Shown: positions 14,303 to 28,191, counted from the stretch's first letter. The stretch: DNA of 64,000 nt from Gemmatimonadota bacterium (GCA_022571515.1 JACZXQ010000014.1:27913-91912); one strand, 5' to 3'. Numbers and translations are program-made. The notes: generated by a model not told the origin, from the sequence alone.

Positions 14303-16089
14303 GCCAACACTCCTTTTCCTAGCTCAACCTTCACTGCGGCCGCCACGGCCGACACGACGTCCTGGCGGCGCCTGTAGCTCATCTCGCGGTCGAGCGGAAC
14401 TTCCAGAATCGCAGGGCCTTCTGTGTTCATTGCGTCCTCCAATGATTCCCCCAGGTCCTGGCTGCTCGTCACACGCCAATACGGAATCCCGTAGAGCTGC
14501 GCGACGCCACGGAAGTTGATCCCATGCGGTGTCAGGAAGTAGGACGTGAATTCCGGCTCGTGCTCGCGGATCGGTAACGCCTGAAAAATCCCACCTCCGT
14601 CATTGTGAATCACGATGAAGCTGACGTCGAGGCCGTACTTCGCCGCCGCGAGCAGCCCATTCATGTCGTGGTACATCGCGATGTCGCCCAGCACCGCGAC
14701 GGTCTTCCTGCCTGTTCCGACCTGCACCCCGAGGGCGCTGGACACAATGCCGTCGATCCCGCTCGCTCCTCGGTTTCCGTAGACGTGGACAACCTTGTCG
14801 GTCGGAGCCACGAACGCATCCAGATCCCTGACCGGCATGCTGTTGGATATGAAGAGGTTCCCATCGGTGGCAAGGCCGGCCACCGCCACCGCCACGACCA
14901 CTCCCTCGAACAAGCCTGCGGAAAGCGTCGTCTGGACCTCTGCTTGGGTGACTTCTTCTACGCGGGCCCATCCCTTTCGCCAGGAGTCCGAGGCGATCGC
15001 GTTGCTGAGACGGCCGCTCACGGCCTGGAGAAACTCGGCAGCGTCGGCCTCCACGTACTCACTGGCCACTGAAAGATGGTCCTTCCAGCGCCCCCCCGGA
15101 TCGATCACGACCTGGCGGGCCTCGGTGCTCTCTGCAAAGAGGCTGGCAAGCGACGCCGACGTCGGTGTGGCTCCTACGCGCAGAATCAGGTCCGGCCGCA
15201 TGCGCTTGCGGATGTCGGGGTCCCGCAGAAACAGGTCGTAGCCGCCGATCACGCTCTTGCAAGCACCCCCGAAACGCGCACCAGACAAAGGGTCGGCCAG
15301 GAGCGGGAACCCCGTCGCCGCGGCAAGACGCCCGGCCGCCATCCCGGTCTCATCCGGCGCCGCATTCGCGCCCACCACGATGATCCCGTTGCGCCGACTC
15401 CGACACAACTTTGCGACATGCTCCACGGCATCGCTCGGCACCGAGCGAGACCCCCGCACCACCCTCACGTAGGGATCCTCCTCCTGCCACCCACCGGGTT
15501 CACGCGTGACAGGACGCCCGCCAGGAGGATCCCCATCCGGACCGGACACGGGCTCGAGAGGCTTGGCAAACGGGAAGTTAAGATGCACGGGACCTGCCGG
15601 CGGGCCGGCCGCCACACTCACAGCGCGAGCGGCGAGCGTGCGGAGGTGCCGAAGCGCGGGCTCATCCGTGCTGGGTGGCGCCACCTCGTGGAACTCGCGC
15701 ACCTGCGTTCCGAACAGCCTGACTTGGTCGATCGCCTGGTTGGCGTCCGCGGCCCGAAGGCGATGGGGACGGTCGGCGGTCAGTACGATGAGCGGCACTT
15801 CGGCATGGAAAGCCTCGATAACCGCGGGGTGCAGGTTCGCGGCCGCCGTGCCGGACGTGGTGATAACCGCTGCGGGCATGCCCGTGGCACGTCCAATGCC
15901 CAGCGCGAAGAAACCTGCGGACCGCTCGTCGAGGTGCACGAAACGCTCGAAGCGGTCGTCTCTGGCCACGGCCATGACAAGGGGCGTCGAGCGAGATCCG
16001 GGTGCGATACAGACGTGGCGGACCCCGCAGGCCGCCAACTCCTGAACGAAGGCACGGGCCCAGGGAGTGTTCGCTCCACCAGGGTTCAC
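14299..16089 (-). CDS. menD: SEPHCHC synthase (ThDP-dependent)
   Basis: [31 protein letters not shown]...[10 protein letters not shown]...[12 protein letters not shown]. The GTG start overlaps the menF TGA (GTGA), and the stop overlaps the menB ATG. Confidence 0.9.
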
Positions 16090-17471
16090 AGGCGGGCCCC
16101 GCTGGCCTCGAGGGCACGCAGCACGGGCTCGAACTTGATGCCGGTCTCCTCCCACTCGAGTGCCGCGTCAGAGCCGGCGACGATCCCCGCTCCCGCGAAC
16201 AGCCGCCACTGCCTGCCGCGCACGACCGCACACCGTAGAGCCGGCGCAAACACGCCGTTGCCCGCGGCATCGAACCAACCGACCGGGCCGGCATACCAGC
16301 CGCGCTCGAACGGCTCCTGTCGGCTCAGAAACTCCAACGCCGCATCACGGGGTAACCCACACACCGCCGGCGTCGGGTGGAGCGCCTCTAGAATGTCGAG
16401 CACCCCGATCCCTTCGGGGATCCGGGCTTTGATTTCCGATTCGAGATGTTGGATCCTCGAGAGCGTCAGCACGTGAGGCTCGGCCTGAGCCTCGACGTCT
16501 TCAGCAAGGGGCGTCAGGCGGGCCACCATGTCATCCAGGGCAATCCCATGCTCCTCCCGATCCTTACGGCTGGACAGCAGGCGTTCGGCCAGGGCTCCCC
16601 GCTCTTCGGGGGTCGTTCCCACACCGATGGATCCGGCCACCGCAGTGGCTTGGAACGCACCATGCTGCAACGTCGCGACCGTCTCTGGGGCCGCCCCGAG
16701 GAGTGCGGCGCCCGGCCGAGGCTCGAACAGGAATACGTGCGTCCCGCGGTTTCGGTCCCAGAGGTGCTCGAGTACCTCGACAGGTCGCAGGAGTCCATCG
16801 GTTTTGAGATCGAGCGTACGCGCGAGCACTACCTTCGATACGGACGCCTCGCTGATGGCGGCGAGACTCGCCGAAATAGCCGCCTCCCATGCGGACCGGC
16901 CCGAGTCATTGCTATCGACGTCGATGGCGTGCTCGCCTGTGTGTTCTTGGCCTGCTTCGTGGGCAAGAGTCCGCCCGAACCGTTCGAGTCGCTCGCGAAG
17001 GTCTCTTGCGAGCTGGGACGGATCTTCGCCCACTCTGGCCAACGCATGGGCTCTCAGGGTGACCGGGCCTTCCCCGCCCGAAGCCTCTATGGACGGAAGG
17101 TGGAACAGCGCCGTCGGGAAGCCATCCCAGACACCGGCCTGTCGATGATCTGAGCGAAACGCGAAGCCTCCATAGAGCCGCGGTCCGCTCTCCCCGGGAG
17201 AGCCGAGTCCGAGCAACTCGCTGGCATCCGAGCGAACGGCTTGAAATCGGCCGTCCACGCCGGAAGTGGAGGCTGTAGCCACCACCTCGGCCGCAATTCC
17301 GGAGTGAGCGACCCAGTGTTCACCGCGCGCCCAGAACCCGCGCGCCTCCCCCTCCGCCGCCCTGAGGAAGGCCGAGGGTGACACGTCCGGCCCGGGCGCC
17401 GACACGGAGACCACGCGGCTCAGCGCCGCGGAAACCCCTACCCGCTCCATTGCGGGCTCGATTACAGACAA
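16086..17471 (-). CDS. menF: isochorismate synthase
   Basis: Chorismate-binding family: GAAPETVATL...SRKDREEHGIALDDM...LHPTPAVCGLP...RGWYAGPVGWFD...FAGAGIVAGSD. Confidence 0.85.
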   Translation of the reverse strand: MSVIEPAMERVGVSAALSRVVSVSAPGPDVSPSAFLRAAEGEARGFWARGEHWVAHSGIAAEVVATASTSGVDGRFQAVRSDASELLGLGSPGESGPRLYGGFAFRSDHRQAGVWDGFPTALFHLPSIEASGGEGPVTLRAHALARVGEDPSQLARDLRERLERFGRTLAHEAGQEHTGEHAIDVDSNDSGRSAWEAAISASLAAISEASVSKVVLARTLDLKTDGLLRPVEVLEHLWDRNRGTHVFLFEPRPGAALLGAAPETVATLQHGAFQATAVAGSIGVGTTPEERGALAERLLSSRKDREEHGIALDDMVARLTPLAEDVEAQAEPHVLTLSRIQHLESEIKARIPEGIGVLDILEALHPTPAVCGLPRDAALEFLSRQEPFERGWYAGPVGWFDAAGNGVFAPALRCAVVRGRQWRLFAGAGIVAGSDAALEWEETGIKFEPVLRALEASGARL

Positions 17472-17675
17472 CTGCTCGTCACGTCGAACGGGGACGCTCC
17501 CAGAGGTTAGTGCCGGGTGTGTCCGATCTCACGATCGGGACGGGAGACTATGAACGAAGAGAATATAGGGTGCTGCGGTGAACAACCAAGCCGTGAACGG
17601 CCTGACCGCTAGCTGTGGATGAGGTACGTGAGGAGCCACGCGACCGCCTGGGGTAGCATGTCGAAGGTGAAGAGC

Positions 17676-18059
17676 TCAGCTCCCACTGCGGTCAGCCTCT
17701 TGGATCATGTCCACCAGACGCTCCAACTCGTCGCGGTCCACCTCGTGTGCACGGACCAGGTGGCGGACGAGTGCCGAGGGGTCGCCCTCGAAGAGGCTCG
17801 CGGTCAGTTCGCGCACCTTGGAGTGGCGTACCTCCTTTTCGGTCACGAGCGCCCGATAGACGTACTGACGCCCCTCCTTGCGGTGAGACAAGACACCCCT
17901 CTTCTCGAGCCTCGAGAGCAGAGTCGCAACGGTGGTGAGAGCGAGACCCCGGACCTCCGCCATGGCGGCGTGGACCTGCTGGGTGGTAGCCTCTCCGCAC
18001 TCCCAGAGTATGTGGAGAATGGCGAGTTGGAGTTCGGTCAGGGCATGGCTATCCGTCAA
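17676..18059 (-). CDS. BlaI/MecI/CopY-family transcriptional repressor
   Basis: LTELQLAILHILWECGEATTQQVHAAM...LALTTVATLLSRLEKRGVLSHRKEGRQYVYRALV. Confidence 0.85.
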   Translation of the reverse strand: MTDSHALTELQLAILHILWECGEATTQQVHAAMAEVRGLALTTVATLLSRLEKRGVLSHRKEGRQYVYRALVTEKEVRHSKVRELTASLFEGDPSALVRHLVRAHEVDRDELERLVDMIQEADRSGS

Positions 18060-18224
18060 CGGCCTCTCCCGGTGGGAGATCTACTACGAGTGTATGACGT
18101 GCGGCCACCGCCGCGGGGTTGCCCCAGGGCGGGAGTAACCCCTGGTCCGGATCATGCAGTGTTCGCCATGTGGGTCCCGCAGCGTACCTTATGCGGGATC
18201 TTCACCGGTAGCGACGAGAATAGG

Positions 18225-19178
18225 ATGACACTAGTGGCTTCCAAGACAGCTTCGATTCGTTCTCAGTGCATGCGGAGAGCCAGACTCGCCGGGTGGATGG
18301 CCTGCGTGGCGGTTCCAGTGATCGCGGCTCCCACCGCAGCCCAGGCCCCCCCGGGGACCGACATCCTGATTGCAGACCTCGGCACCTTCAACGGCGTCTA
18401 CTACCTCGTCGGAGATCCCAAAAACGTCACGAAGAGGCCCGAGGCATACGACAATCAGCCGTTCTTCACGCCGGACAGCCGCTCGATCCTGTTCACGGCC
18501 GCCTACGAAGACGGTAACGACGGACAGACGGAGATCCACAGGTACTACCTCAGCGCAAGACGCACCGCCCGCATCACGCGTACCGCCGAGAGCGAGTACT
18601 CTCCCACTCCCGTGCCCGGCGATAGGGCCTTCTCAGCCATTCGCGTCGAAGCCGACTCGACTCAGCGACTCTGGCGCTTCACCATGGAGGGAATGGACCC
18701 GGAGGTCCTCTTGCCCAACCTCGACCCCGTGGGGTATCACGCGTGGGCTGACCCGAACACCCTGTTGCTCTTCGTTCTCGGTGAACCCTCCACCCTCCGT
18801 TTGGCCGACCTGCGCACCGCGCGTGTGGAGATCGTGGCCGAGAACGTGGGTCGTTCCATCCACAAGATTCCGACGAGGAACGCGTTCAGCTTCACCCAGC
18901 GTGTCTCGGACGACGAGGCCTGGATCACAGAGCTGGATCCGAACACGAAGGAGACGACCCGACTCGTCAGGACCCTTTCGGGGGGTGACTTCCACGCCTG
19001 GACGCCGGACGGTACGCTGCTCATGGCGGACGGTGGAAGCATCTACCAATGGAATCCCGGCCGGGCAAACGGTTGGCAGCGGATCGCCGACCTCAGCCGC
19101 ATGGGCCTCGAGTTCTCCCGGCTGGCCGTGAGCCCGGATGGGACGAAGATCGCGCTGGTCGGACAGGCGGCGAATTAG
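18225..19178 (+). CDS. periplasmic TolB-like beta-propeller protein
   Basis: Signal peptide (ACVAVPVIAAPTAAQA) and repeated F(T/S)PD(G/S) motifs (FFTPDSRSILF, AWTPDGTLL, AVSPDGTKIAL). The start is at Met 18225 or 18270. The upstream part of the track ORF is antisense to the BlaI gene. Confidence 0.6.
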   Translation: MTLVASKTASIRSQCMRRARLAGWMACVAVPVIAAPTAAQAPPGTDILIADLGTFNGVYYLVGDPKNVTKRPEAYDNQPFFTPDSRSILFTAAYEDGNDGQTEIHRYYLSARRTARITRTAESEYSPTPVPGDRAFSAIRVEADSTQRLWRFTMEGMDPEVLLPNLDPVGYHAWADPNTLLLFVLGEPSTLRLADLRTARVEIVAENVGRSIHKIPTRNAFSFTQRVSDDEAWITELDPNTKETTRLVRTLSGGDFHAWTPDGTLLMADGGSIYQWNPGRANGWQRIADLSRMGLEFSRLAVSPDGTKIALVGQAAN

Positions 19179-19474
19179 CGCGGCCGCGTGGTGCGCTCAG
19201 ACCGGAGAACGCCGACACTTACGTAATGAAGCTTTGTGGTCCAACCTGAGATCCCGGCTCTGGCACCCCTTCAGGTGAGATAGATGGGCATCAAGCAACG
19301 TCCCGCGTGCGGGGCCAACCTCCTACGACTCCCGAGTGCTGCCACCAATGCGGGGTGGATCCGGCCGATCATCCCCTCACCGCCGACCCTGGTGTGGCGT
19401 CTTGGATCTTGGGGAGCATGGACCTGGCAGCCATTGGGGCGGCCGTTCTCTGGCTGTACTTCTTCAACAACCTT

Positions 19475-19882
19475 CTAGGCCGGAAGCGCGCATTGGATCG
19501 ACCGCTCGCGACGTAGAAGCTCCGCCCCGGAGACCGTCAGCAGCACGTTCTTCCCCACCGTGACCCAGGGGGGCAGTGCCACCATGGTCCCAAGACAGCC
19601 ACAGCTTTCCCAGCCGGCAAGGGTTGCGCCCAGGCTCCCCACGAGGAACGCCGTCAGGAGTGCCAGCACGGCCCGATACACCGAGAGCCGGGGATACCCC
19701 ACCAGCGCCACCACCGCAGCGGACTCCACCATGACCAGACCGGCAGCGAGGAGCAGGCCGGCACGCAGGGAGACGGCGAGTCGCGCCGCGAAGAAGGCCC
19801 CGGCACCCTGGAGGTCCAACCCCTTGGCGAGGGCGCTGGCCATGAGAGCCGTGACGAGGACTGCCCGAAGGAAGGTGCTCAT
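19475..19882 (-). CDS. MauE/DoxX-family redox-associated membrane protein
   Basis: 135 aa with about 4 TM segments and LAKGLDLQGAGAFF plus the WESCGCLG motif typical of MauE-type proteins. Its ATG overlaps the upstream stop (ATGA). It is hidden in the distal part of track ORF 19475..20173. Confidence 0.7.
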   Translation of the reverse strand: MSTFLRAVLVTALMASALAKGLDLQGAGAFFAARLAVSLRAGLLLAAGLVMVESAAVVALVGYPRLSVYRAVLALLTAFLVGSLGATLAGWESCGCLGTMVALPPWVTVGKNVLLTVSGAELLRRERSIQCALPA

Positions 19883-20544
19883 ATGCCCAACCGCCGAAGA
19901 TAGAGAACGAGCCCCACCTGAAGGGCGTTGAACGTGAAGAAGAGCCCGCCCACGACGATGGCAGCCGCGCGTCGCCGGACGCCTTCCGTCCGCGCCAGCC
20001 CCGTGTAGAGGACGCCGAACCAGACCAGCTCGAACGCGGACAAGGATCCCGCCAGGGCGCTGGCGGATGCCTGGAGGCCAGGGAAGAATGTGTGAAGCGT
20101 GCCCAGCGGCCGATAGAACGCCTCTGCCGTGACGGCAGGCCCGTCGAGACCGGCCCGGTACCACAGTACCCACGCCAGTTGAGCAGCCAAGACCACCTGG
20201 GCCACGACAGCCACCCGGAACAGCCTGGCAAACGGCGCTTCATGGTTCTGGAGTGCCAAAGACAGTTGCAGGAGCAGCGCCACCAGCCCGACTTGGACCG
20301 CCAGTACGATGGGAGTGATGAGGTAGGACCAGCCGGCCATGCGCCGATAGAGGGCCCACTGGCGATCCATACCGACTCCGTCCATGGAGCCCTCCAGGAG
20401 CAGATCGTGGATCTGCCGTGCCATGACCACGTCCCTCGAAATCCAGTTCATCACCAGGTAGGCGAAGACGAGCCCAAGGAGAACCTGAAGCGTCGATACA
20501 TGGACCGGACCCAAGGATCGCGGCCAGGGGTAGCGTCGAGTCAT
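19879..20544 (-). CDS. polytopic membrane protein of unknown function (candidate immunity/accessory protein)
   Basis: 221 aa from Met47 of the track ORF (MTRRYPWPRSLGPVHVSTLQVLLGLVFAYLV...), with about 5 hydrophobic segments. It starts 11 nt after the exporter stop. No family recognised. Confidence 0.55.
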   Translation of the reverse strand: MTRRYPWPRSLGPVHVSTLQVLLGLVFAYLVMNWISRDVVMARQIHDLLLEGSMDGVGMDRQWALYRRMAGWSYLITPIVLAVQVGLVALLLQLSLALQNHEAPFARLFRVAVVAQVVLAAQLAWVLWYRAGLDGPAVTAEAFYRPLGTLHTFFPGLQASASALAGSLSAFELVWFGVLYTGLARTEGVRRRAAAIVVGGLFFTFNALQVGLVLYLRRLGI

Positions 20545-20555
20545 CTCGGCGCTGT

Positions 20556-22727
20556 TCACGGGTGCAGTCCAGGAGTGAGAGTTTCTGCAGCCACGCTGGC
20601 GAGTTCGAGGTGGGGCGGTTCGGAGCGTGGGGGTGCCCCGGGGCGGATCTGGCCACCGGAGAGCACAAAGATACGATCGCACTGCTCAAGGGTGTGGACG
20701 TCGTGCGACACCATCAGGATTGCATGATCCGCAGCATAGCGGCGTAACAGCTCACCCACCGCGAGCGCCGTCTCGGAATCGAGGGCATTGGTCCCCTCAT
20801 CGATCAGGAGCACCGCGGGCTCGTCCAGGAGAGCGCGCATCAGACCGACGAACTGACGCTCACCGGAGGACAGCCGGCGTCCCGCCTCTCCCACCAAGGT
20901 CCCGAGGCCGTGTGGAAATCGGTGCAGATGCCCCTCCAGGCCGACCTCCCGGAGGCGTTCGATCAACCGCGGCAGCTCCGCACCGCTCCGGCCCAGGAGA
21001 ATGTTGTCGGCGATGGTACCATGGAGAAGCTTCGCGTCCTCCGGAACCACGACCACGTTGCGGCGCCATGACTCCAGTTCCACGGCCTCGGCCGGCTGTC
21101 CGTCTAGTAGTAAGCTTCCAGCCGTCACGGAGTAGCTTCGGTCCAGGATCCGCACCAGTGTGCTCTTCCCCGATCCGTTTCGCCCCCAAAGGCCCACGAG
21201 CTCTCCCCGGTGAACATCAATGCTCGCTCCCTGGAGGATGGGCGGCGCTCCCGGCCAACCGAAGTGCACGTCGCGCAGGGTCACGGAGCGGCGGAGAACC
21301 AGTGGGCGACCCTCGTGGACGACCTCCGCCTCGGCGTGCAGGATATCGAAAAGCCTCTGCGCGGCCGCGGAGGCCTGACGCAACGCGATGTGCATCTCGG
21401 CCAGACGACCCACTGAGGGCAACATGGCTGCGAGGAGGGCATAGACGGCGAGCATCGCTCCTAGCGCGATCTGGTCGGCGAGGACGAGCACTGCACCGCT
21501 GAGCAGTACGCACACCACGACGGCGTTAGCGGCCAGCTCGGCCAGCACGCCGATGCGGGCCTGGGTCGTAGCGAAGTGGGCGAGGCGCCCCTGGAAAGTG
21601 CGATGGTACGCGGAGTTCAACCGCGCGAAGAGCGTGGCTGCGTTGAAGCTCCGCACCTCACGGGCGCCAAGGATGCCGTCCAGGGACGAGGCCTGGAGAG
21701 CGCCGTACGACTGAAGGACCTCCCGCTGCTGCGACCTCACGGACCGGGTCGTCCACGCCACCAGGCCGCCGTACACCGGCACCGCGGCGACGGCGATCCA
21801 GGCCAGAGGGGGCGCGAAGAGGAAGGCCGCGCCGATGGAAGCCGGCACCACCAGGAGGTCTACCACCGCACCGCCGGCGAGGAGGAAGACCGCGTTCTGC
21901 ACCACCACGGCGTCATCCACGCGAGCGGCGATGTCCCCTGCCTTGCGTCGGTCAAAGAAGGCCACAGGAAGGCGAAAGAGGTGGGCGAAAAAGTCGTCGA
22001 TCATCCCCACGCTCACCCGCTCGCGGAGGCCTATGAGGAACCTCTGGCGGAGGAGGTTCACGCCCGCCCGGATTCCCTGGATCCCGAGGAGCAGCAGACC
22101 CGTGAGAAGCAGAAGGTCGAGTTCTCGACGGGGAATGAATCGATCGACGGTGGCTTGGATAAAGAGAGCGGTCAGCAGGCCCAGGGCCGTGTAGGCGGCT
22201 CCCAGAAAGGCGGACTGCACGAGCCAGGTATGCTCCAGCCGCACGTACGCCCACAGCCACCCGGTCCATGGCTCGGGACGGCTCTTCGCGATCTCCTCGC
22301 CTGGCTCCAAGAGGAGAACAGTTCCGTCCCGCCACATCTCCTCGAACCGGCTCCGAGTGAGAGATCGGAAGCCCTGAGCGGGGTCCATGATCAGCACTCC
22401 GTCGGGTCGTGCCTCGTACACCACGACGAAGTGCGCCTGGCCGTCGTCCAGGACCACGTGGGCGATGCACGGGAGCGCGACCTCCTGGAGTGAGATGTAG
22501 TCTCCACGGGCACCGGAGGCCTGGAGCCCGACCGCCTGAGCGGCCTCCGCGATCCCAGCCAGGGAGCTACCGTCCGAGCCCGTGCCCGAGAGTTCCCGGA
22601 GCCTGGGAAGGGGCAGCTCCCCCCCGTGGTATCGGAGGACACTGAGAATCGCCGCCGGCCCACAGTCGGTTCTCTCGTTTTGAAGCACGATAAGCGTCTT
22701 CGGAAGTCTCATGGTCCAGGGTCTCAT
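20556..22727 (-). CDS. peptidase-C39-domain ABC exporter (bacteriocin/double-glycine peptide processing-export type)
   Basis: N-terminal LQNERTDCGPAAILSVLRYHGG...AHFVVVYE...MDPA (Cys/His/Asp of C39), a six-TM domain, Walker A GRNGSGKST, signature LSSGERQ and Walker B LLIDEGTNALD. The start is ambiguous (ATG 22727 or 22712; the track uses GTG 22772). Confidence 0.9.
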   Translation of the reverse strand: MRPWTMRLPKTLIVLQNERTDCGPAAILSVLRYHGGELPLPRLRELSGTGSDGSSLAGIAEAAQAVGLQASGARGDYISLQEVALPCIAHVVLDDGQAHFVVVYEARPDGVLIMDPAQGFRSLTRSRFEEMWRDGTVLLLEPGEEIAKSRPEPWTGWLWAYVRLEHTWLVQSAFLGAAYTALGLLTALFIQATVDRFIPRRELDLLLLTGLLLLGIQGIRAGVNLLRQRFLIGLRERVSVGMIDDFFAHLFRLPVAFFDRRKAGDIAARVDDAVVVQNAVFLLAGGAVVDLLVVPASIGAAFLFAPPLAWIAVAAVPVYGGLVAWTTRSVRSQQREVLQSYGALQASSLDGILGAREVRSFNAATLFARLNSAYHRTFQGRLAHFATTQARIGVLAELAANAVVVCVLLSGAVLVLADQIALGAMLAVYALLAAMLPSVGRLAEMHIALRQASAAAQRLFDILHAEAEVVHEGRPLVLRRSVTLRDVHFGWPGAPPILQGASIDVHRGELVGLWGRNGSGKSTLVRILDRSYSVTAGSLLLDGQPAEAVELESWRRNVVVVPEDAKLLHGTIADNILLGRSGAELPRLIERLREVGLEGHLHRFPHGLGTLVGEAGRRLSSGERQFVGLMRALLDEPAVLLIDEGTNALDSETALAVGELLRRYAADHAILMVSHDVHTLEQCDRIFVLSGGQIRPGAPPRSEPPHLELASVAAETLTPGLHP

Positions 22728-22742
22728 TTGGGTATGCGCGGT

Positions 22743-22767
22743 CCCGGGGGGCAAAGCACCCCCCGGG
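22743..22767 (-). terminator. GC hairpin between precursor gene B and the exporter gene (attenuator/stabiliser candidate)
   Basis: The arms cccgggggg (22743-22751) and ccccccggg (22759-22767) are perfectly complementary, with a 7-nt loop. There is no U-tract. Confidence 0.4.
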
Positions 22768-22779
22768 GGCACGTCGCGT

Positions 22780-22932
22780 TCAGCAGAGTAGAGCGCCGCC
22801 AGCCAAACCGATTAGGCAGGCCCCTAGCATAAGACTCGCGCAGGAGATGTTAGTGACGATATTCAGCATCATGCACAGTTTTGCGTTTCCGCCATGCACA
22901 TCCTGCATTTCTCGCAGTGTAAGGTCGGTCAT
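22780..22932 (-). CDS. double-glycine-leader precursor peptide B (50 aa)
   Basis: MTDLTLREMQDVHGG|NAKLCMMLNIVTNISCASLMLGACLIGLAGGALLC. GGAGAA SD 6-7 nt upstream of the ATG at 22930-22932. This is the last 50 codons of track ORF 22780..23160. Confidence 0.75.
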   Translation of the reverse strand: MTDLTLREMQDVHGGNAKLCMMLNIVTNISCASLMLGACLIGLAGGALLC

Positions 22933-22990
22933 GATATTTTCTCCATGTGCTTTAGTGCCGTCTTCGACGGACACCTCGTTGTTGGGGGGG

Positions 22991-23016
22991 GGAGGGAGAC
23001 GTGAGCCCCTCCCTCC
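22991..23016 (-). terminator. hairpin between precursor genes A and B (attenuator/stabiliser candidate)
   Basis: ggagggag (22991-22998) pairs with ctccctcc (23009-23016), giving an 8-bp stem and 10-nt loop. It starts 11 nt after the peptide A stop. On the mRNA it is followed by a C-run, not a U-run. Confidence 0.4.
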
Positions 23017-23026
23017 GGCTCGCGCA

Positions 23027-23179
23027 TCAGAAGGAGCAGAGCGCCACACCTCCCACCAGACCGAGCCCGCAGGCCCAAAGAAACCCGACCATGCAGGAGA
23101 TGGCTGTGATTGCTGCCAGGGTGGCGCAATTCGTGCCACCCTGGATCTGCAGCATCTCATGCGTTGTGAGCGTTGTCAT
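23027..23179 (-). CDS. double-glycine-leader precursor peptide A (50 aa)
   Basis: MTTLTTHEMLQIQGG|TNCATLAAITAISCMVGFLWACGLGLVGGVALCSF. GGAGGA SD 7 nt upstream of the ATG at 23177-23179. This is the last 50 codons of track ORF 23027..23506. Confidence 0.75.
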   Translation of the reverse strand: MTTLTTHEMLQIQGGTNCATLAAITAISCMVGFLWACGLGLVGGVALCSF

Positions 23180-23252
23180 GGTAATTCCTCCATCGGGAAT
23201 CGAGTTGCAGATTCGCTCCCGCCGAACGCGGGACGCGTGGGGCGCCGGGTGA

Positions 23253-23801
23253 TCAACCGGTGCTGCCCCTCGTTGAAGCCTCCGGAGCTCCAATCTTGTG
23301 TAGCCCAGCCAAGAGGGCGTCCAGCGTCTTCTGACCGAGCACTTTTCTAAGTAGGGTGCGCTGGCGTCCGAACACATAAAGCCCAGGTGTGCCCGGCAGG
23401 GGGAACGCCTCCTCGAGGGCGGCGTCGTCGGAGAGGACCCACTGGACTCGCGGAGACGAGGCGAGAGCCGGCCAATCCTCACGGAGCAGATCCACGACCT
23501 CCGCATCCTCGTCGGTGACCAGCGCGAGGGTCAGATCGAGTGTGGCGAACCGCTCCACGTCACCCTCGAGCATGCGCAGTTCTTCCACACATGCCGAACA
23601 GGTGGTGTGATAGACCATGACGACGAGTCGCGATGCCCCCCCTGTTCGGAACGTCGTGCCAACGCCCTCCAGGGTCCGGATCTCCAGGTCGGGCAGAACC
23701 GAGCCCAGTGGCATGGGGTCGGGCTTCGCCGCCTCCAAGAGGAGCCAGCCTGCAAGTAGCAACATCGTCACCGTCACTGTAGCTGCGAGAACTCTTCGCA
23801 T
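23253..23801 (-). CDS. membrane-anchored TlpA/ResA-like thioredoxin-fold oxidoreductase (MauD-like)
   Basis: N-terminal TM (VTVTMLLLAGWLLL), then LPDLEIRTLEG...LVVMVYHTTCSACVEEL with a CxxC in a redoxin context. Confidence 0.75.
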   Translation of the reverse strand: MRRVLAATVTVTMLLLAGWLLLEAAKPDPMPLGSVLPDLEIRTLEGVGTTFRTGGASRLVVMVYHTTCSACVEELRMLEGDVERFATLDLTLALVTDEDAEVVDLLREDWPALASSPRVQWVLSDDAALEEAFPLPGTPGLYVFGRQRTLLRKVLGQKTLDALLAGLHKIGAPEASTRGSTG

Positions 23802-23816
23802 CGGGCGATCCCCCTG

Positions 23817-24536
23817 TCAGTCCTCAACCAGTCGGCCGCGCTGACAGCGCAAGTGGGCCACGGCCGTGAGAACGGCGATGAGCACGAGAACCTGAGCCAC
23901 ACCCAGGAATACCACCTCGGGAGTCAGTTCGGTGGGGACGTATCCCTCGAAGGTTTCGCTCCACTCCGGGGGGATGAGCGCTCCCACCATGGCCGGGCCG
24001 AGCATGGCGGCTATCACGATCATCGCCAGGGTTTCCGAGGCTCGTCTCCCAGTGGGCACGTGGAGGGAGACCAGCACGCCGACCACCGTGACAAGGGCGG
24101 CGGCCAGTAGGCTTGCGGCGGCGGCCGCCAGGAGCACGCGCGCGTCGGCGCCTCCACCGCGAAGGACGCCCAGGACGACGCCGACGCCGGTGACGGCTAT
24201 GGCGATGCTCCAACCGTAGAGCACGTTGGCGATGATCTTGCCCAACAGGAGGCCTCGATCGGAGATGCGGCTGGCCAGCAAGGTCTCCAGGGTGTGGTGC
24301 TCCCTCTCTCCCGCGAAACTGTCACCTACCACCGGGAGGATGAACAACACGGCCAGAAGGGCGGAAACGATCGGCGTTATGCTGGACCTGCCAAAGTCTG
24401 GGCCCACGACCTGGGATACGACCAGGCCGAGAACCGCGAGGATTCCCAGCCGGGCGATGCCAAAGAACCTGCCGCCTTCTTGCCGGAAGAACTCGACCCA
24501 CTCTTTCCGGATCATTGCCGAGACGTCCTGGATCAT
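23817..24536 (-). CDS. ABC-2 type transporter permease
   Basis: 239 aa with six hydrophobic segments. Its start overlaps the ATPase stop (ATGA at 24533-24536). Confidence 0.7.
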   Translation of the reverse strand: MIQDVSAMIRKEWVEFFRQEGGRFFGIARLGILAVLGLVVSQVVGPDFGRSSITPIVSALLAVLFILPVVGDSFAGEREHHTLETLLASRISDRGLLLGKIIANVLYGWSIAIAVTGVGVVLGVLRGGGADARVLLAAAAASLLAAALVTVVGVLVSLHVPTGRRASETLAMIVIAAMLGPAMVGALIPPEWSETFEGYVPTELTPEVVFLGVAQVLVLIAVLTAVAHLRCQRGRLVED

Positions 24537-25468
24537 GTCTCATCCTCCAGAAGCGAGAGGAACACCTCTTCGAGCGACGCAGCGAAGCCCCGGACCTCGG
24601 AGATCTCCACGCCACGGCCGACCAGGAGCGCCACCAGCGGCGGAGCGTCAGCGCCTTCGGCCAGGTCGATCCTGAGGACGTCGCCGTCCAGGGCAACGTC
24701 CAGCACGTCGGGCCGGGCCCTGATATCGGCGACGATTTCGGGTGTCATGCCCGAACCGACCACTTCCACACCGGGCCTCGTAGCTCGCCGCCGCAGTTCC
24801 TCGGGGACGCCCATGGCCAGGAGGCGGCCCTCGCGGAAAATCCCCACCGAGTCGCAGATCTGCTCCGCCTCGCCGAGGTTATGCGTCGTCAGGAACACCG
24901 TGACATCTTCGGCCCGCACCAGGCGAAGAAGATCCTGGCGGAGTGCCGCCGCCGAGCGGGCATCCAACCCCGCCGTGGGCTCGTCCAGGAGAAGGAGGCT
25001 CGGCCGGTGCATCATGGCGCGGGCGATGGCCAGCTTCTGTTTCATGCCCTTGCTCCACGTGGAGACGCGGTCTCCACGGCGCTCCCAGAGCTCGAAGCCC
25101 TCGAGAAGCTCCTGCATCCGTGCCCTGGCCTCCACACAGCCCATCCGGTTGATACGCGCATAGAAGTCGAGGTTTTCGACAGCGGTCAGGCGCTCGTAAA
25201 GCCCGTGGTGCTCCAGGAGCGCCCCACACTCCGCCCTCACCGTCTCCCCCTCACGGCTGGGATCGCGCCCGAAGATCAGTGCGCGACCTCCCGTCGGCTC
25301 GAGCAGGCCGAGGAGGAGCCGGAGGGTCGTGGTCTTTCCGGCGCCATTGGGACCGAGGAATCCGAACACGGAGTTTCGGGGCACCACGAGGTCCAGGTGA
25401 TCCACTGCTCTGAGGGCCCCGAAGTCCCGAGTCAGACCCTCGGCGTGAACAGCTGGCCCGGCGCTCAT
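24533..25468 (-). CDS. ABC transporter ATP-binding protein (ABC-2/DrrA-like)
   Basis: Walker A GPNGAGKTT, signature WSKGMKQKL, Walker B LLLLDEPTAGLD and H-loop TTHNL. Confidence 0.9.
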   Translation of the reverse strand: MSAGPAVHAEGLTRDFGALRAVDHLDLVVPRNSVFGFLGPNGAGKTTTLRLLLGLLEPTGGRALIFGRDPSREGETVRAECGALLEHHGLYERLTAVENLDFYARINRMGCVEARARMQELLEGFELWERRGDRVSTWSKGMKQKLAIARAMMHRPSLLLLDEPTAGLDARSAAALRQDLLRLVRAEDVTVFLTTHNLGEAEQICDSVGIFREGRLLAMGVPEELRRRATRPGVEVVGSGMTPEIVADIRARPDVLDVALDGDVLRIDLAEGADAPPLVALLVGRGVEISEVRGFAASLEEVFLSLLEDET

Positions 25469-25581
25469 TTGCTTCCGCCGAGGAGTGCGTACGCCTGGCC
25501 TGGCCCAACCTCCAGATTCACATCGATCAGAGCGGAAATCGAGCCATAGCTCTTGTGAACGTGTCGTGTGCTAAGGTGCAT
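25465..25581 (-). pseudogene. 38-codon N-terminal remnant of a second ABC ATPase
   Basis: My own translation gives MHLSTRHVHKSYGSISALIDVNLEVGPGQAYALLGGSK*. It stops where Walker A should begin, and its TGA overlaps the ATG of the intact ATPase gene. Confidence 0.45.
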
Positions 25582-25991
25582 GGATCACCTCGGTTGTGTG
25601 TGTGACTCCACGGGCAAGAGGAGCGCCGACTCGCTCAAGGTACATCCGCTCAAACGACCAGCGCATAGCTGGATTGGACGACCTGCGGCCACCCAACAGT
25701 TTGAATTAAGGCCTGTTTTCTCTTACCCACTGCCAGCCTGGCGGTGGAGGGTCCGGCAGAGGCACGCCGGGGATCGACAGCCATTGGCGCTCAGAGATTC
25801 GGCAACAGCGCACCACGCCCCCATCATGGTCCGTCACCATACAGCTTGTCCGCCATTGTCTCCACCCCAGGCGAGGGAGATGGTCAGGATTGGGTCGACG
25901 GCCTCCGGCCGTCCGCCTATATTGCCCGCCGCCGCTCATACCGACCTCGCGAGCGGCTCGGGCAAGATGATCCTGGACCGTAGGAGGTGGA

Positions 25992-26978
25992 TTGAAGCGG
26001 ATTCTCGTGACGGGCGCCGGCGGACAGATCGGCGCATGGCTGGTCCCCGCCCTTCGGGAGAGGTACGGATCGGATGCCGTCCTGGCGACGGATATCCGTA
26101 CCGCGGATGACGACCAGCTGGGCGGAGGCCCCTTCCAGATCCTGGACTGCACGGACCAGAGCGCGCTGGGCCAGGCGACTATTCGCCACAACGCAGACGC
26201 GGTCTATCACCTGGCCGCCATACTCTCGGCGGTCGGGGAGAAGGATCCGCAGCTGGCCTACAACGTCAACATGGGTGGCCTGCACGCCGTCCTGGAAGTC
26301 GCCCGATCGCAGCGGTGCGCGGTGTTCACGCCCAGCTCGATAGGCGTATTCGGCGTCGAGACGCCGCGTGATCCCACACTCCAGGACACCATCACACGGC
26401 CGACCACCATGTACGGCATCACCAAGGTGGCCGGAGAACTGCTCTGCGACTACTACCACCGGCGCTACGACGTCGACACCCGCGGCGTGCGGTATCCCGG
26501 GTTGATCTCCTACGGCGCGCCACCGGGTGGGGGCACCACGGACTGGGCGGTGGACATCTTCCACGATGCGGTGCGCGAAGGCAGCTATACGTGTTTCCTC
26601 GGCGGGGACATCCAGCTCGACATGATGTACATGCCGGACGCCATCCGGGCTGCCATGGAGATCATGGAGGCGGACCCCGCCAAGTTGGTTCACCGCAACG
26701 CCTTCAACATCACCGCGATGCAACTCTCGCCGGAATCCCTCACGGCTGAGATCCGGAAACATCTCCCCGACTTCACGATCGACTACGACATCGATCCTGT
26801 GCGCGAGGCCATCGCCCGTACGTGGCCGCTGCGCCTCGACGACTCCGCCGCCCGCGAGGAATGGGGGTGGCAGCCCGATTACGATTTGGCTGCGATGACC
26901 GCCGACATGATCGAGCATCTCACGGCTGACGTCACCGATGGCCGCGGCCGCACGGAGAACCACGATGCCATTGAATAG
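25992..26978 (+). CDS. tdh: L-threonine 3-dehydrogenase, short-chain (UDP-galactose-4-epimerase-like) type
   Basis: MKRILVTGAGGQIG...YHLAAILSA...TMYGITKVAGELL. TTG start after AGGAGG. Followed by kbl. Confidence 0.8.
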   Translation: MKRILVTGAGGQIGAWLVPALRERYGSDAVLATDIRTADDDQLGGGPFQILDCTDQSALGQATIRHNADAVYHLAAILSAVGEKDPQLAYNVNMGGLHAVLEVARSQRCAVFTPSSIGVFGVETPRDPTLQDTITRPTTMYGITKVAGELLCDYYHRRYDVDTRGVRYPGLISYGAPPGGGTTDWAVDIFHDAVREGSYTCFLGGDIQLDMMYMPDAIRAAMEIMEADPAKLVHRNAFNITAMQLSPESLTAEIRKHLPDFTIDYDIDPVREAIARTWPLRLDDSAAREEWGWQPDYDLAAMTADMIEHLTADVTDGRGRTENHDAIE

Positions 26979-28191
26979 GCTGTCCCAGGTGCTCGCCACC
27001 CACGTGGCCGGCCTCGAGGAGGCCGGTACCGCGAAGGGCGCCGAATCGGTCGTGGTCGAGGTTCGGCCCGCGGAGGGCGACCGTGGGCCCCGGTTCCTTC
27101 TGCAAGGCGAGGGCGAGCGGGAGTTCATCCGCATGAACTCGAACTCCTATCTGGGCATGGGTCTCCGCCCCGAGGTCATCGAGGCGGAGGAGAGGGCCAC
27201 ACGTGCTTTCGGTGCGGGTCCGGGGGGGGTCCGGTTCATTTCGGGTACCTACCGGATCCACCTCGAGCTCGAGGCCAAGTTGGCGGCGTTCCATGGCCGG
27301 GAATCGGCCATGATCTTCTCGTCCGCGTACGCCGCAATCCTTTCGACGATCACGCCGCTGGTGACGGCGGACACAGTGCTGATCAGCGACGCGCTCAACC
27401 ACAACTGCATCATCAACGCCATGCGCCTCGCGAGACCGCAGGCGAAGGTGGTCTATCCCCATCTCGACCTCGAAGCCCTGGACAATGCGCTCGCGGACCA
27501 CGCCGGAAAAGCCAAGCGGGCGTTGGTGGTGACCGACGGGATCTTCAGTATGCGAGGGGACCACGCCCCTCTCGACGAGATCATGGAAATCGCCCGGCGC
27601 CACGACGACGCCTACGAGGAGAACGTGGTGGTCGTGGCGGACGACTCGCACGGCGTGGGCGCGCTCGGAGCCACCGGCCGTGGCGTAGAGGAGCTCACCG
27701 GCTCGGAGCCGGTGGACGTGCTGGTCGGGACGCTGGGCAAGGCGTTCGGCGTGAACGGCGGCTACGTGACGTCGAGCGCTGCGGTGATCGGCTTCCTGCG
27801 CGAGACCTCACCGATGTACATCTACTCGAACCCGATCACCGTGGGCGAAGCCAGCGCGGCATTGCGCTCGCTGGAGATCGTGGACAGCGATGAGGGCCGG
27901 GCCCTGCTAGACCGGCTGCGTTCGCTCACCAGGCGCTTCGAGGAGGGCCTGGGGCGCATTGGGATCGAGACCATTCCGGGCGAGCACCCTGTCGTGCCCC
28001 TCATGATCCGCGACACCGGCAAGACCCACGACCTGGTCCGCTACCTCTACGAGAACGGCGTGCTCGTGACGGGCCTCGCCTACCCCGTGGTGCCCAAGGG
28101 CGACGAAGAGATCCGCGCCCAGGTCAACACCGATCACACCGAGGCGGACATCGACCAGGTGCTGGATCTGCTGGCCGCGTACCAGGGTTAG
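26965..28191 (+). CDS. kbl: glycine C-acetyltransferase (2-amino-3-ketobutyrate CoA ligase)
   Basis: NSNSYLGMG...GGVRFISGT...DDSHGVGALGATGRG...GTLGKAFG (PLP lysine). Start at Met10 of the track ORF, overlapping the tdh stop. Confidence 0.9.
   Translation: MPLNRLSQVLATHVAGLEEAGTAKGAESVVVEVRPAEGDRGPRFLLQGEGEREFIRMNSNSYLGMGLRPEVIEAEERATRAFGAGPGGVRFISGTYRIHLELEAKLAAFHGRESAMIFSSAYAAILSTITPLVTADTVLISDALNHNCIINAMRLARPQAKVVYPHLDLEALDNALADHAGKAKRALVVTDGIFSMRGDHAPLDEIMEIARRHDDAYEENVVVVADDSHGVGALGATGRGVEELTGSEPVDVLVGTLGKAFGVNGGYVTSSAAVIGFLRETSPMYIYSNPITVGEASAALRSLEIVDSDEGRALLDRLRSLTRRFEEGLGRIGIETIPGEHPVVPLMIRDTGKTHDLVRYLYENGVLVTGLAYPVVPKGDEEIRAQVNTDHTEADIDQVLDLLAAYQG
28108..28191 (+). repeat. kbl 3' end, copy 1 of an 84-nt direct repeat
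   Basis: Manual alignment with 29606-29689 gives 76 of 84 positions identical, and both copies end at a stop codon. Confidence 0.85.

Follow-up and report, generated by a model that had tools for sequence, protein, structure and literature searches.

Gene content of the cluster

Within a 64,000-nucleotide stretch of a Gemmatimonadota bacterium genome (GCA_022571515.1, JACZXQ010000014.1:27913-91912; hereafter the window, whose numbering we use throughout) lies a cluster of genes, all on the minus strand in surroundings of 65% G+C, that we infer to be a self-contained operon whose products make two small hydrophobic peptides, fold them oxidatively and export them. Two of the genes encode putative redox proteins: a MauE-family membrane protein of 135 amino acids (aa) with the motif E-S-C-G-C-L-G (19475..19882; Pfam MauE, PF07291) and a 182-aa membrane-anchored thioredoxin-fold protein (23253..23801), recognized from its sequence and hydropathy and carrying the motif YHTTC-S-A-C. 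Between them are two 50-aa precursor peptides, A (23027..23179) and B (22780..22932), each with a double-glycine (GG) leader and a core containing four cysteines (Cys), followed by a 738-aa C39 peptidase/ABC exporter (20556..22772; Pfam Peptidase_C39, 1e-31; ABC_membrane, 3e-29; ABC_tran, 6e-26) and a 221-aa polytopic membrane protein (19879..20544) for which no family was matched. A sequence-only reading of the window had described a redox pair, one frame with SCGC (S93-C94-G95-C96) and one with CSAC, that brackets two exported-type four-Cys peptides and their exporter; both open reading frames (ORFs) are present where it placed them, on the minus strand, and the gene order is as it claimed.

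Peptide A begins with the 15-aa leader MTTLTTHEMLQIQGG, which ends in GG; the 35-aa core that follows is hydrophobic and uncharged and has its Cys at positions 3, 14, 22 and 33. Peptide B has the 15-aa leader MTDLTLREMQDVHGG, also ending in GG, and a 35-aa core. Both cores are nearly charge-free and space their cysteines as C-x10-C-x7-C-x10-C, a spacing found again in peptides of three related loci described below (L001, L035 and L036; locus labels are ours) and, with one extra Cys, in a fourth (L038). Because the i/i+11 separation puts the Cys of each half on one helix face and the seven-residue middle is turn-sized, the pattern suggests that both cores form a helical hairpin clamped by nested C1-C4 and C2-C3 bonds. 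Across 13 related peptide cores, each has 2-6 Cys located near both ends, and Cys accounts for 8.6% of residues compared with 0.77% in the long ORFs of the genome (binomial P ~7e-30, a value that overstates independence because the peptides are partly homologous). Neither peptide reached a curated bacteriocin model in Pfam or NCBIfam; peptide A scored 18.2 bits against Pfam Bacteriocin_IIc (cut-off 27.1) and peptide B gave no match.

The translated exporter carries the catalytic cysteine in DCGPAA and the histidine in HFVVV, so that GG leaders and a dedicated C39 peptidase ABC exporter, the two features of double-glycine export, occur together here. C39 exporters remove the GG leader of their substrates and export the core that remains, and by analogy the window exporter probably treats both peptides in this way. 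The first gene of the cluster encodes a DrrA-like ABC transporter ATPase (24533..25468, minus strand; Pfam ABC_tran, 5e-30, and DrrA1-3_C), which matched NCBIfam drrA at 9e-76, below the cut-off of that model. It is followed by a 239-aa ABC-2 type permease with about six hydrophobic segments and one Cys (23817..24536; Pfam ABC2_membrane_2, 2e-11), and the two are presumed to form an immunity or efflux pump. Junctions between genes are tight, with gaps of 8-95 nucleotides (nt) except at either end of the cluster, where neighbouring genes overlap by 4 nt. At one end these are the start and stop of the ATPase and permease genes; at the other, the ATG of the MauE gene overlaps the stop of the 221-aa gene (ATGA), by which the MauE gene appears to be translationally coupled to it. 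A scan for promoters and terminators gave counts not above those in shuffled sequences.

The MauE-type protein and its proposed thioredoxin partner

The MauE-type ORF passes the Pfam model marginally, with 27.1 bits against a cut-off of 27 for PF07291 and 27.6 bits in a six-frame search of the genome; MauE was the one Pfam family that it matched. The NCBIfam model for the BT_3928 N-terminal domain gave 30.6 bits for the window protein and 40 bits for an 86% identical twin; such twins come from ENA metagenomes. Among 1.84 billion representative proteins, scanned exhaustively with HMMER, 40 relatives were recovered at E <= 1e-3; 38 of them were aligned with the window protein to give 39 sequences, two shorter proteins of 78 and 104 aa being left out. 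The aligned relatives are stand-alone proteins of 131-159 aa, usually with the motif N-C-G-C-F-G-T. Eight residues are invariant in the alignment (K20, D23, E53, C94, C96, G98, P105 and K111), and this conservation, together with the Pfam score, bears out the MauE likeness proposed in the sequence-only reading, so that assignment to the family appears to hold. Position 97 is Leu in the window protein and Phe in 30 of the 39 sequences, including the 86% twins (Met in four, Tyr in two). A third cysteine, C131, falls outside the conserved set, as it is Arg in the 86% twins. When the MauE-like protein, the thioredoxin and the 221-aa protein served as queries in word-index searches for homologues, the matches were the 86% twin, one 45% identical thioredoxin homologue, the window itself and no others.

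An AlphaFold2 model of the MauE-type protein, built with eight cluster-associated sequences, was confident (predicted local distance difference test score (pLDDT) 88.9; predicted template-modelling score (pTM) 0.79) and contains four long helices at residues 2-22, 39-62, 66-88 and 105-132. We take these to be transmembrane helices TM1 to TM4, with K20 in TM1, E53 in TM2 and C94-G-C96 in the 89-104 loop between TM3 and TM4. Averaged over the 39 MauE relatives, the number of Lys plus Arg residues is 1.0 at the N-terminus, 0.33 in loop 1, 1.97 in loop 2, 0.72 in the CXC loop and 3.03 in the C-tail. As these residues are sparse in loop 1 and the CXC loop but abundant at the N-terminus, in loop 2 and in the C-tail, the predicted topology is N-in/C-in with the CXC loop outside. 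A Foldseek comparison of the model with the PDB gave nothing with E below 3, and neither DsbB nor VKOR was among the 50 best matches; the sole suggestive one, at rank 18, was the DoxX-related NACHO/TMEM35A with a template-modelling score of 0.47.

A recent preprint describes MauE as having a periplasmic CXC motif between TM3 and TM4, followed by Phe-Gly, with a Lys in TM1 and a Glu in TM2 that form its proposed quinone site (Gonzalez et al. 2026, bioRxiv 10.64898/2026.03.05.709764). In that work, two MauE homologues from two phyla, UniProt B8FLW7 and H1XRV2, replaced DsbB in Escherichia coli and drove oxidation through DsbA there in a manner that required the CXC, 8.2% of MauE database entries were fused to a thioredoxin-superfamily protein, and MauE was argued to be a generalist oxidase in many phyla. 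The four helices, CXC loop, K20 and E53 of the window protein match these defining features, which argues that it is a MauE of the DsbB-like oxidase type.

The thioredoxin-fold protein has RR at its N-terminus, then a hydrophobic segment (residues 4-22), and no lipobox; its active site is C68-S-A-C71, and T138-P139 occupies the cis-proline position of the fold. Five homologues share C68, C71, W110-P111, T138-P139, Y142 and F144 without exception. Thioredoxin-fold CxxC proteins exchange disulfides. The window protein scored 17.7 bits against Pfam AhpC-TSA (cut-off 26), a model matched at E <= 1 by all five homologues, three of which also matched Redoxin; and a profile search of PDB sequences was weak but consistent, returning 3kcm (E 0.005), YkuV (0.04) and ResA (0.1). 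The AlphaFold2 model, made from three sequences, was poor (pLDDT 48) and unfit for a fold search.

The label of MauD-like given to this protein in the sequence-only reading stands only in part. An anchored CxxC thioredoxin fold does lie beside mauE, but when the window protein and the 45% homologue were scanned against NCBIfam, the MauD family was not returned even at E <= 10; the single match for both was SelL_rel_redox, at 14.9 and 12 bits. Nor is there a mau operon: the genes next to it, both in the window and in every related locus, encode peptides, exporters and ABC-2 proteins. The protein is better described as a probable anchored TlpA/ResA-like thioredoxin that resembles MauD in architecture only.

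The host genome (3.84 Mb in 95 contigs) has other means of handling disulfides. A genome-wide search with PF02600 matched a DsbB homologue on contig C15 only, not the cluster (45 bits at C15:89071-89433, in the ORF C15:89029-89589, with C-M-L-C and a second pair C-x5-C), while Thioredoxin_4 (DsbA-like) gave five matches in the genome and DsbD/CcdA homologues number three; VKOR was not found in it. Because DsbB, DsbA-like and DsbD/CcdA homologues are already present, the cluster appears to add an extra oxidase of another family rather than to fill a gap. The cluster gene is also the only PF07291 match in the genome with a CXC. Two further matches to this model are Cys-less DoxX-like ORFs, one about 2.6 kb past the window end (C38:94531-95223, 29 bits) and one elsewhere (C35:163850-164692, 18.9 bits). 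As such ORFs score too, a near-threshold Pfam match is insufficient to call a redox-active MauE, and the CXC needs checking.

Recurrence of the gene set and the accessory island

To place the cluster among its relatives, we read the genomic contexts of nine MauE homologues (about 31-46% identity to the window MauE), most of them on short metagenome contigs. Eight of the nine, with G+C contents of 35-70%, repeat the order C39 exporter, ~225-aa membrane protein and MauE together with Cys-containing GG peptides; conservation of the MauE-like ORF with its cluster, on which the sequence-only reading had staked its proposal, is thus borne out. An anchored CxxC thioredoxin homologue is encoded in all six module loci whose sequence reaches that flank, with the active sites CPAC (L001), CSHC (L024), CGHC (L034), CPAC (L036), CQHC (L037) and CAAC (L038), so that, with the window, seven loci co-encode it with MauE. 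In L031 and L035 the contig begins at the peptide gene, and for this reason the thioredoxin cannot be judged there. By these sequence comparisons, the gene set appears to recur in at least eight unrelated environmental bacteria. A search with the thioredoxin alignment in metagenome-contig and genome-contig collections gave no related loci.

The closest context is a single locus split over two contigs, L001 and L023, which come from the same Logan run and share a 28-nt exact overlap that continues one reading frame. It encodes an ABC-2 permease, the CPAC thioredoxin, one four-Cys peptide with the window's spacing, the C39 exporter, the membrane protein and a MauE with 46% identity and the motif CGCFG. 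L024, from ENA (MauE identity about 40-42%), has the CSHC thioredoxin, two 2-Cys GG peptides, an ABC-2 permease, the C39 exporter, a 232-aa protein, MauE and an ABC ATPase; identity to the window is 28% for the thioredoxin (E 5e-21), 27% for the membrane protein, 45% for the exporter, 29% for the permease and 54% for the ATPase. In L034, an NCBI metagenome-assembled genome (GCA_040003455.1; MauE 36%), the CGHC thioredoxin, a 3-Cys and a 2-Cys peptide, the C39 exporter, a 225-aa protein and MauE are present, and the NCBI annotation names the MauE gene alone, calling the thioredoxin, peptide and 225-aa protein 'hypothetical'. L035 (MauE 36%, CACFG) has a 4-Cys peptide with identical spacing, the C39 exporter, a 228-aa protein, MauE, a Yip1-type protein and an ABC-2 pair. 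L036 (MauE 35%; CPAC thioredoxin) and L038 (MauE 34%, CLCFG; CAAC thioredoxin) each have the C39 exporter, a 231-aa protein and MauE, with a 6-Cys and a 5-Cys peptide, respectively.

In L037 (35% G+C; MauE 31%), the C39 exporter, a 223-aa protein and MauE are followed by the CQHC thioredoxin and two 2-Cys peptides; the second of these small ORFs (L037:8200-8391) has a longer leader that ends in K-A-G-Q, not G-G, and two Cys near the ends of its hydrophobic core. L031/L032 (MauE 37%) encodes two 2-Cys GG peptides, a 527-aa membrane protein, an ATPase, the C39 exporter, a split membrane protein and MauE. Directly after MauE, L031 has genes for an outer-membrane factor (OEP), a membrane-fusion protein (MFP) and a MacB-type protein, unlike the window, in which no MFP or OEP partner gene was found. 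L029 (MauE 38%) has an ATPase, a Yip1 protein and MauE, its contig starting 2.4 kb upstream. Permease homologues of the ABC-2 type are found in L001, L024, L034 and L035. The Pfam lists of the called genes in the loci contain no lanthipeptide, radical-SAM or glycosyltransferase-type family, several genes matching nothing and neighbours not having been scanned individually, and no match to a DsbD/CcdA family was found among these called genes.

The 221-aa protein, which contains no Cys and matched nothing in Pfam or NCBIfam, is a regular member of the set. Alignment identified same-position homologues in L001/L023, L024 (L024:7306-8004), L034 (L034:7327-8004) and L035 (L035:2520-3206), and the slot between exporter and MauE is occupied by 223-231-aa genes in L036, L037 and L038. 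In L031 (5452-6140) the corresponding gene is split into ORFs of 175 and 48 aa, by a frameshift or an assembly error. Conserved residues, in window numbering, include W34, R67, Y74, P78, Q93-L94, F109-R110, E172 and W175. The stop of the ~225-aa gene overlaps or abuts the start of MauE in the window, L024, L034, L035, L036, L037 and L038. As Yip1 genes lie nearby in L029 and L035, the protein was also considered as a Yip1, an identity that hhalign comparison with the Yip1-type neighbours did not support (probability 1.8%). As a guess, it could serve as an immunity or hand-over factor.

The whole cluster sits in a 6.7-kb accessory island (19179..25892, no strand assigned) that is absent from three same-genus genomes. 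In a DNA search of relatives, these congeners matched the window only at 16000-19178 and 25893-28190, with 83-90% nucleotide identity; past the break points at 19178 and 25893 their DNA is unrelated to the window. Because the two flanks lie on different contigs in the congeners and run into unrelated DNA, the site looks like a variable region or synteny break rather than a simple insertion into an otherwise intact site. In the left flank are menF and genes resembling blaI and TolB, and in the right flank tdh and kbl, on separate contigs in the congeners. Also in the left flank, between menF and the BlaI-like repressor gene (window ~17612/17613), two congeners carry ~1.15-1.26 kb of extra DNA (G002:C28 30705 to 31861; G001:C19 27448 to 28713) and the third, G003, ~0.3 kb. 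No MauE-like protein was found in 60 relatives, and no thioredoxin orthologue in 400 genomes of the phylum, in which the profile gave generic thioredoxin-fold matches of 25-40 bits compared with a self score of 350 bits.

A MauE relic was seen on a further contig, L002 (ENA ERZ27267417). It encodes 85 aa at L002:479-736 that are 87% identical to the window protein, lacks the N-terminal third and has no cluster upstream; similarity to the window is limited to L002:457-797 (window 19754-19423). The ends of this contig match multi-copy sequences of the window's genome: a 141-nt segment has 100% identity to a piece of contig C41, and many contigs of that genome are matched at ~72% by a stretch of 600 nt. 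These features suggest truncation by mobile DNA, or a chimeric contig, and the relic suggests that the module has been gained and lost over time. The relic adjoins asnB, a remnant of which was considered as a mark of the insertion site and then rejected, as tblastn found no asnB in the window or the congener flanks.

A candidate disulfide relay, its alternatives and its relatives

Since the cluster has its own MauE and thioredoxin and its gene set recurs in at least eight bacteria, it most likely introduces disulfide staples into its peptides during export. We assign a probability of roughly 0.65 to a dedicated oxidative relay in which MauE and the thioredoxin would act on both peptides, and the comparison of loci supports a dedicated relay well. 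The sequence-only reading had proposed a relay that would either form or isomerize the disulfides and would be independent of DsbA/DsbB. In the mechanism we envisage, the C39 domain would cut off the 15-aa GG leaders and the exporter would carry the 35-aa cores through the cytoplasmic membrane. On the outer side of this membrane, the oxidized C68-x-x-C71 thioredoxin would hand disulfides to the four Cys of each core, and two nested bonds (C1-C4 and C2-C3) would clamp the helical hairpin. The reduced thioredoxin would be re-oxidized by C94-G-C96 in the TM3-TM4 loop of MauE, which in turn would pass electrons to a membrane quinone near K20 and E53, as DsbB does for DsbA; electrons would thus flow from peptide to thioredoxin to MauE to quinone. 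The 221-aa membrane protein would be a further component and the ABC-2 pump would provide immunity or efflux. All of the catalytic signatures are present, and in the predicted topology the CXC loop faces outward, as does the CxxC domain. By analogy, the module may be regarded as an extra, cluster-borne copy of the DsbA/DsbB logic that relies on another family of membrane oxidase and moves together with its peptides.

Several observations weigh against a dedicated oxidative relay. The MauE score is barely at the Pfam threshold, and Leu97 replaces the Phe that the preprint suggests helps quinone binding; the oxidase work is itself a preprint, and an earlier study cited in it viewed MauE as a possible reductase (bioRxiv 10.64898/2026.03.05.709764). 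The window CSAC lacks the His found in the oxidizing motifs of DsbA and PDI. L029 shows no C39 exporter within the 2.4 kb available upstream of MauE. One peptide of L034 has three Cys and that of L038 has five, and such odd counts leave at least one Cys of these cores without an internal partner. Finally, the nearest solved relatives of the thioredoxin are of the TlpA/ResA/YkuV type, and many members of the TlpA/ResA class act as reductants. This last point, the earlier reductase proposal and the availability of host DsbB and DsbA-like oxidants that could form the bonds would favour a pair that reduces or isomerizes, with MauE sending electrons outward to a TlpA-like reductase. Such a pair might keep the peptide Cys reduced, reshuffle wrong disulfides made by DsbA, or reduce re-entering peptide to protect the producer. 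We consider this alternative, in all its variants, improbable. In E. coli, oxidation that normally depends on DsbB was restored by MauE homologues of two phyla, in a CXC-dependent manner (bioRxiv 10.64898/2026.03.05.709764). MauE has neither a cytoplasm-facing Cys nor a thioredoxin-accepting site of the DsbD/CcdA type, and the third Cys of the window protein, C131, is Arg in the 86% twins; no match to the DsbD/CcdA family was found among the called genes of the related loci. Moreover, three of the thioredoxin homologues have a CxHC motif (CSHC, CGHC and CQHC), which is typical of oxidizing or isomerizing enzymes.

Proximity to peptide genes is not proof of substrate, and a generalist MauE, as the preprint argues for many phyla, could serve envelope folding at large or another component of the cluster. 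Yet the pair is absent from the 60 relatives and from the three congeners, which carry the flanks only, and the host has its own DsbB and DsbA-like genes. Nearly all of the closest MauE relatives with contexts read lie in peptide clusters of this same type, in organisms that differ widely; no associated peptide has fewer than two Cys and, among the other cluster proteins checked, the 221-aa protein has none and the ABC-2 permease one, all of which makes a role apart from the peptides very unlikely. The Cys might also end up in something other than disulfides, such as metal sites, thioether or other cross-links, or lipid attachment, with the redox pair as an accessory. The odd Cys counts of some cores would suit this, and the 221-aa and 527-539-aa membrane proteins could be unrecognized modifying enzymes; however, the Pfam lists of the nine loci name no established family of modification enzymes and, the catalytic Cys of the C39 domain aside, the conserved proteins with Cys motifs are the CxxC thioredoxin and the CXC MauE. 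The symmetric C-x10-C-x7-C-x10-C pattern and the end-placed Cys pairs of the 2-Cys peptides, in turn, fit disulfides that clamp a hairpin, and we rate a non-disulfide end state as very unlikely.

The dedicated oxidative relay can be set beside several known systems. With MauE and MauD of mau clusters it shares a four-helix protein with CGC in an outward TM3-TM4 loop, Lys in TM1, Glu in TM2 and Gly after the motif, as well as the pairing of MauE with a thioredoxin-superfamily protein. It differs in that the window has no mau genes, the partner thioredoxin does not match MauD and Leu replaces Phe after the CXC; in that the MauE proteins of this small subfamily are stand-alone (131-159 aa) and inside peptide export clusters; and in that the window MauE would be an accessory second oxidase beside a housekeeping DsbB. 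Similar in logic is the sublancin 168 cluster of the Bacillus subtilis prophage SPbeta (sunA, sunT, bdbA, sunS and bdbB), the peptide of which is a helical hairpin with nested disulfides. Other bacteriocin clusters also carry their own thiol-disulfide oxidoreductase, for example the pediocin accessory protein PedC. As in the sublancin cluster, a GG precursor, a C39 ABC exporter, a thioredoxin-like protein (there BdbA) and a membrane oxidase (there BdbB) are encoded together. In the window, however, the oxidase is of the MauE family rather than DsbB, there is no glycosyltransferase, the peptides of this type are uncharged or anionic and far more hydrophobic, and a 221-aa protein and ABC-2 pump are added. 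Because its membrane enzyme is a MauE and not a DsbB, the cluster falls outside the sublancin-type system and is only a functional analogue of it. The leader, with its hydrophobic positions, Glu at -8 and GG at -2/-1, the C39 exporter and the putative immunity transporter are also features of class II bacteriocins and microcins; unlike class II bacteriocins, the window cores are nearly charge-free rather than cationic and match no curated model, and no MFP or OEP gene accompanies them.

MauE homologues outside methylamine metabolism have been noted before beside Cys-rich predicted precursors. The decRiPPter study describes Streptomyces candidate families of ribosomally synthesized peptides that bear post-translational modifications (RiPPs) with mauE, one of them also with mauD, and its authors proposed a role for mauE in modifying the precursors (Kloosterman et al. 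2020, PMC7794033). Those families differ from the present one in their host, Streptomyces, and in their precursors with at least eight Cys, a separation made on their description rather than on sequence, and a C39 exporter, double-glycine leader, 225-aa protein or ABC-2 pump goes unmentioned in the parts of that article that describe them. The MauE preprint has no mention of peptide clusters, bacteriocins or RiPPs (bioRxiv 10.64898/2026.03.05.709764), and no paper on clusters of this kind emerged from a literature search that combined MauE or DoxX with C39 or double-glycine terms.

A wider reading is more tentative, and as a whole we hold it to be rather doubtful: that these loci represent an undescribed, phylogenetically scattered class of hydrophobic hairpin peptides that are nearly free of charge and clamped by disulfides, the clusters of which would always include MauE, an anchored TlpA-like thioredoxin and the ~225-aa protein, and that the 225-aa protein would be an obligatory third component that takes the core from the exporter and presents it to the thioredoxin. 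The peptides may act as antimicrobials on membranes. A bacteriocin cluster with its own disulfide enzymes is already known in principle, so that the finding extends this idea without overturning it. MauE was only recently proposed as the third bacterial membrane disulfide-forming family after DsbB and VKOR, on the basis of heterologous complementation. Were the wider reading true, these loci would provide the first natural genetic evidence of which partner and which substrate belong to a MauE oxidase that lies outside methylamine metabolism. The clusters offer a compact natural test bed for the MauE pathway, in which the thioredoxin partner and the small substrates are defined, and they hint at a family of exported hydrophobic peptides, clamped through their Cys, that has escaped annotation.

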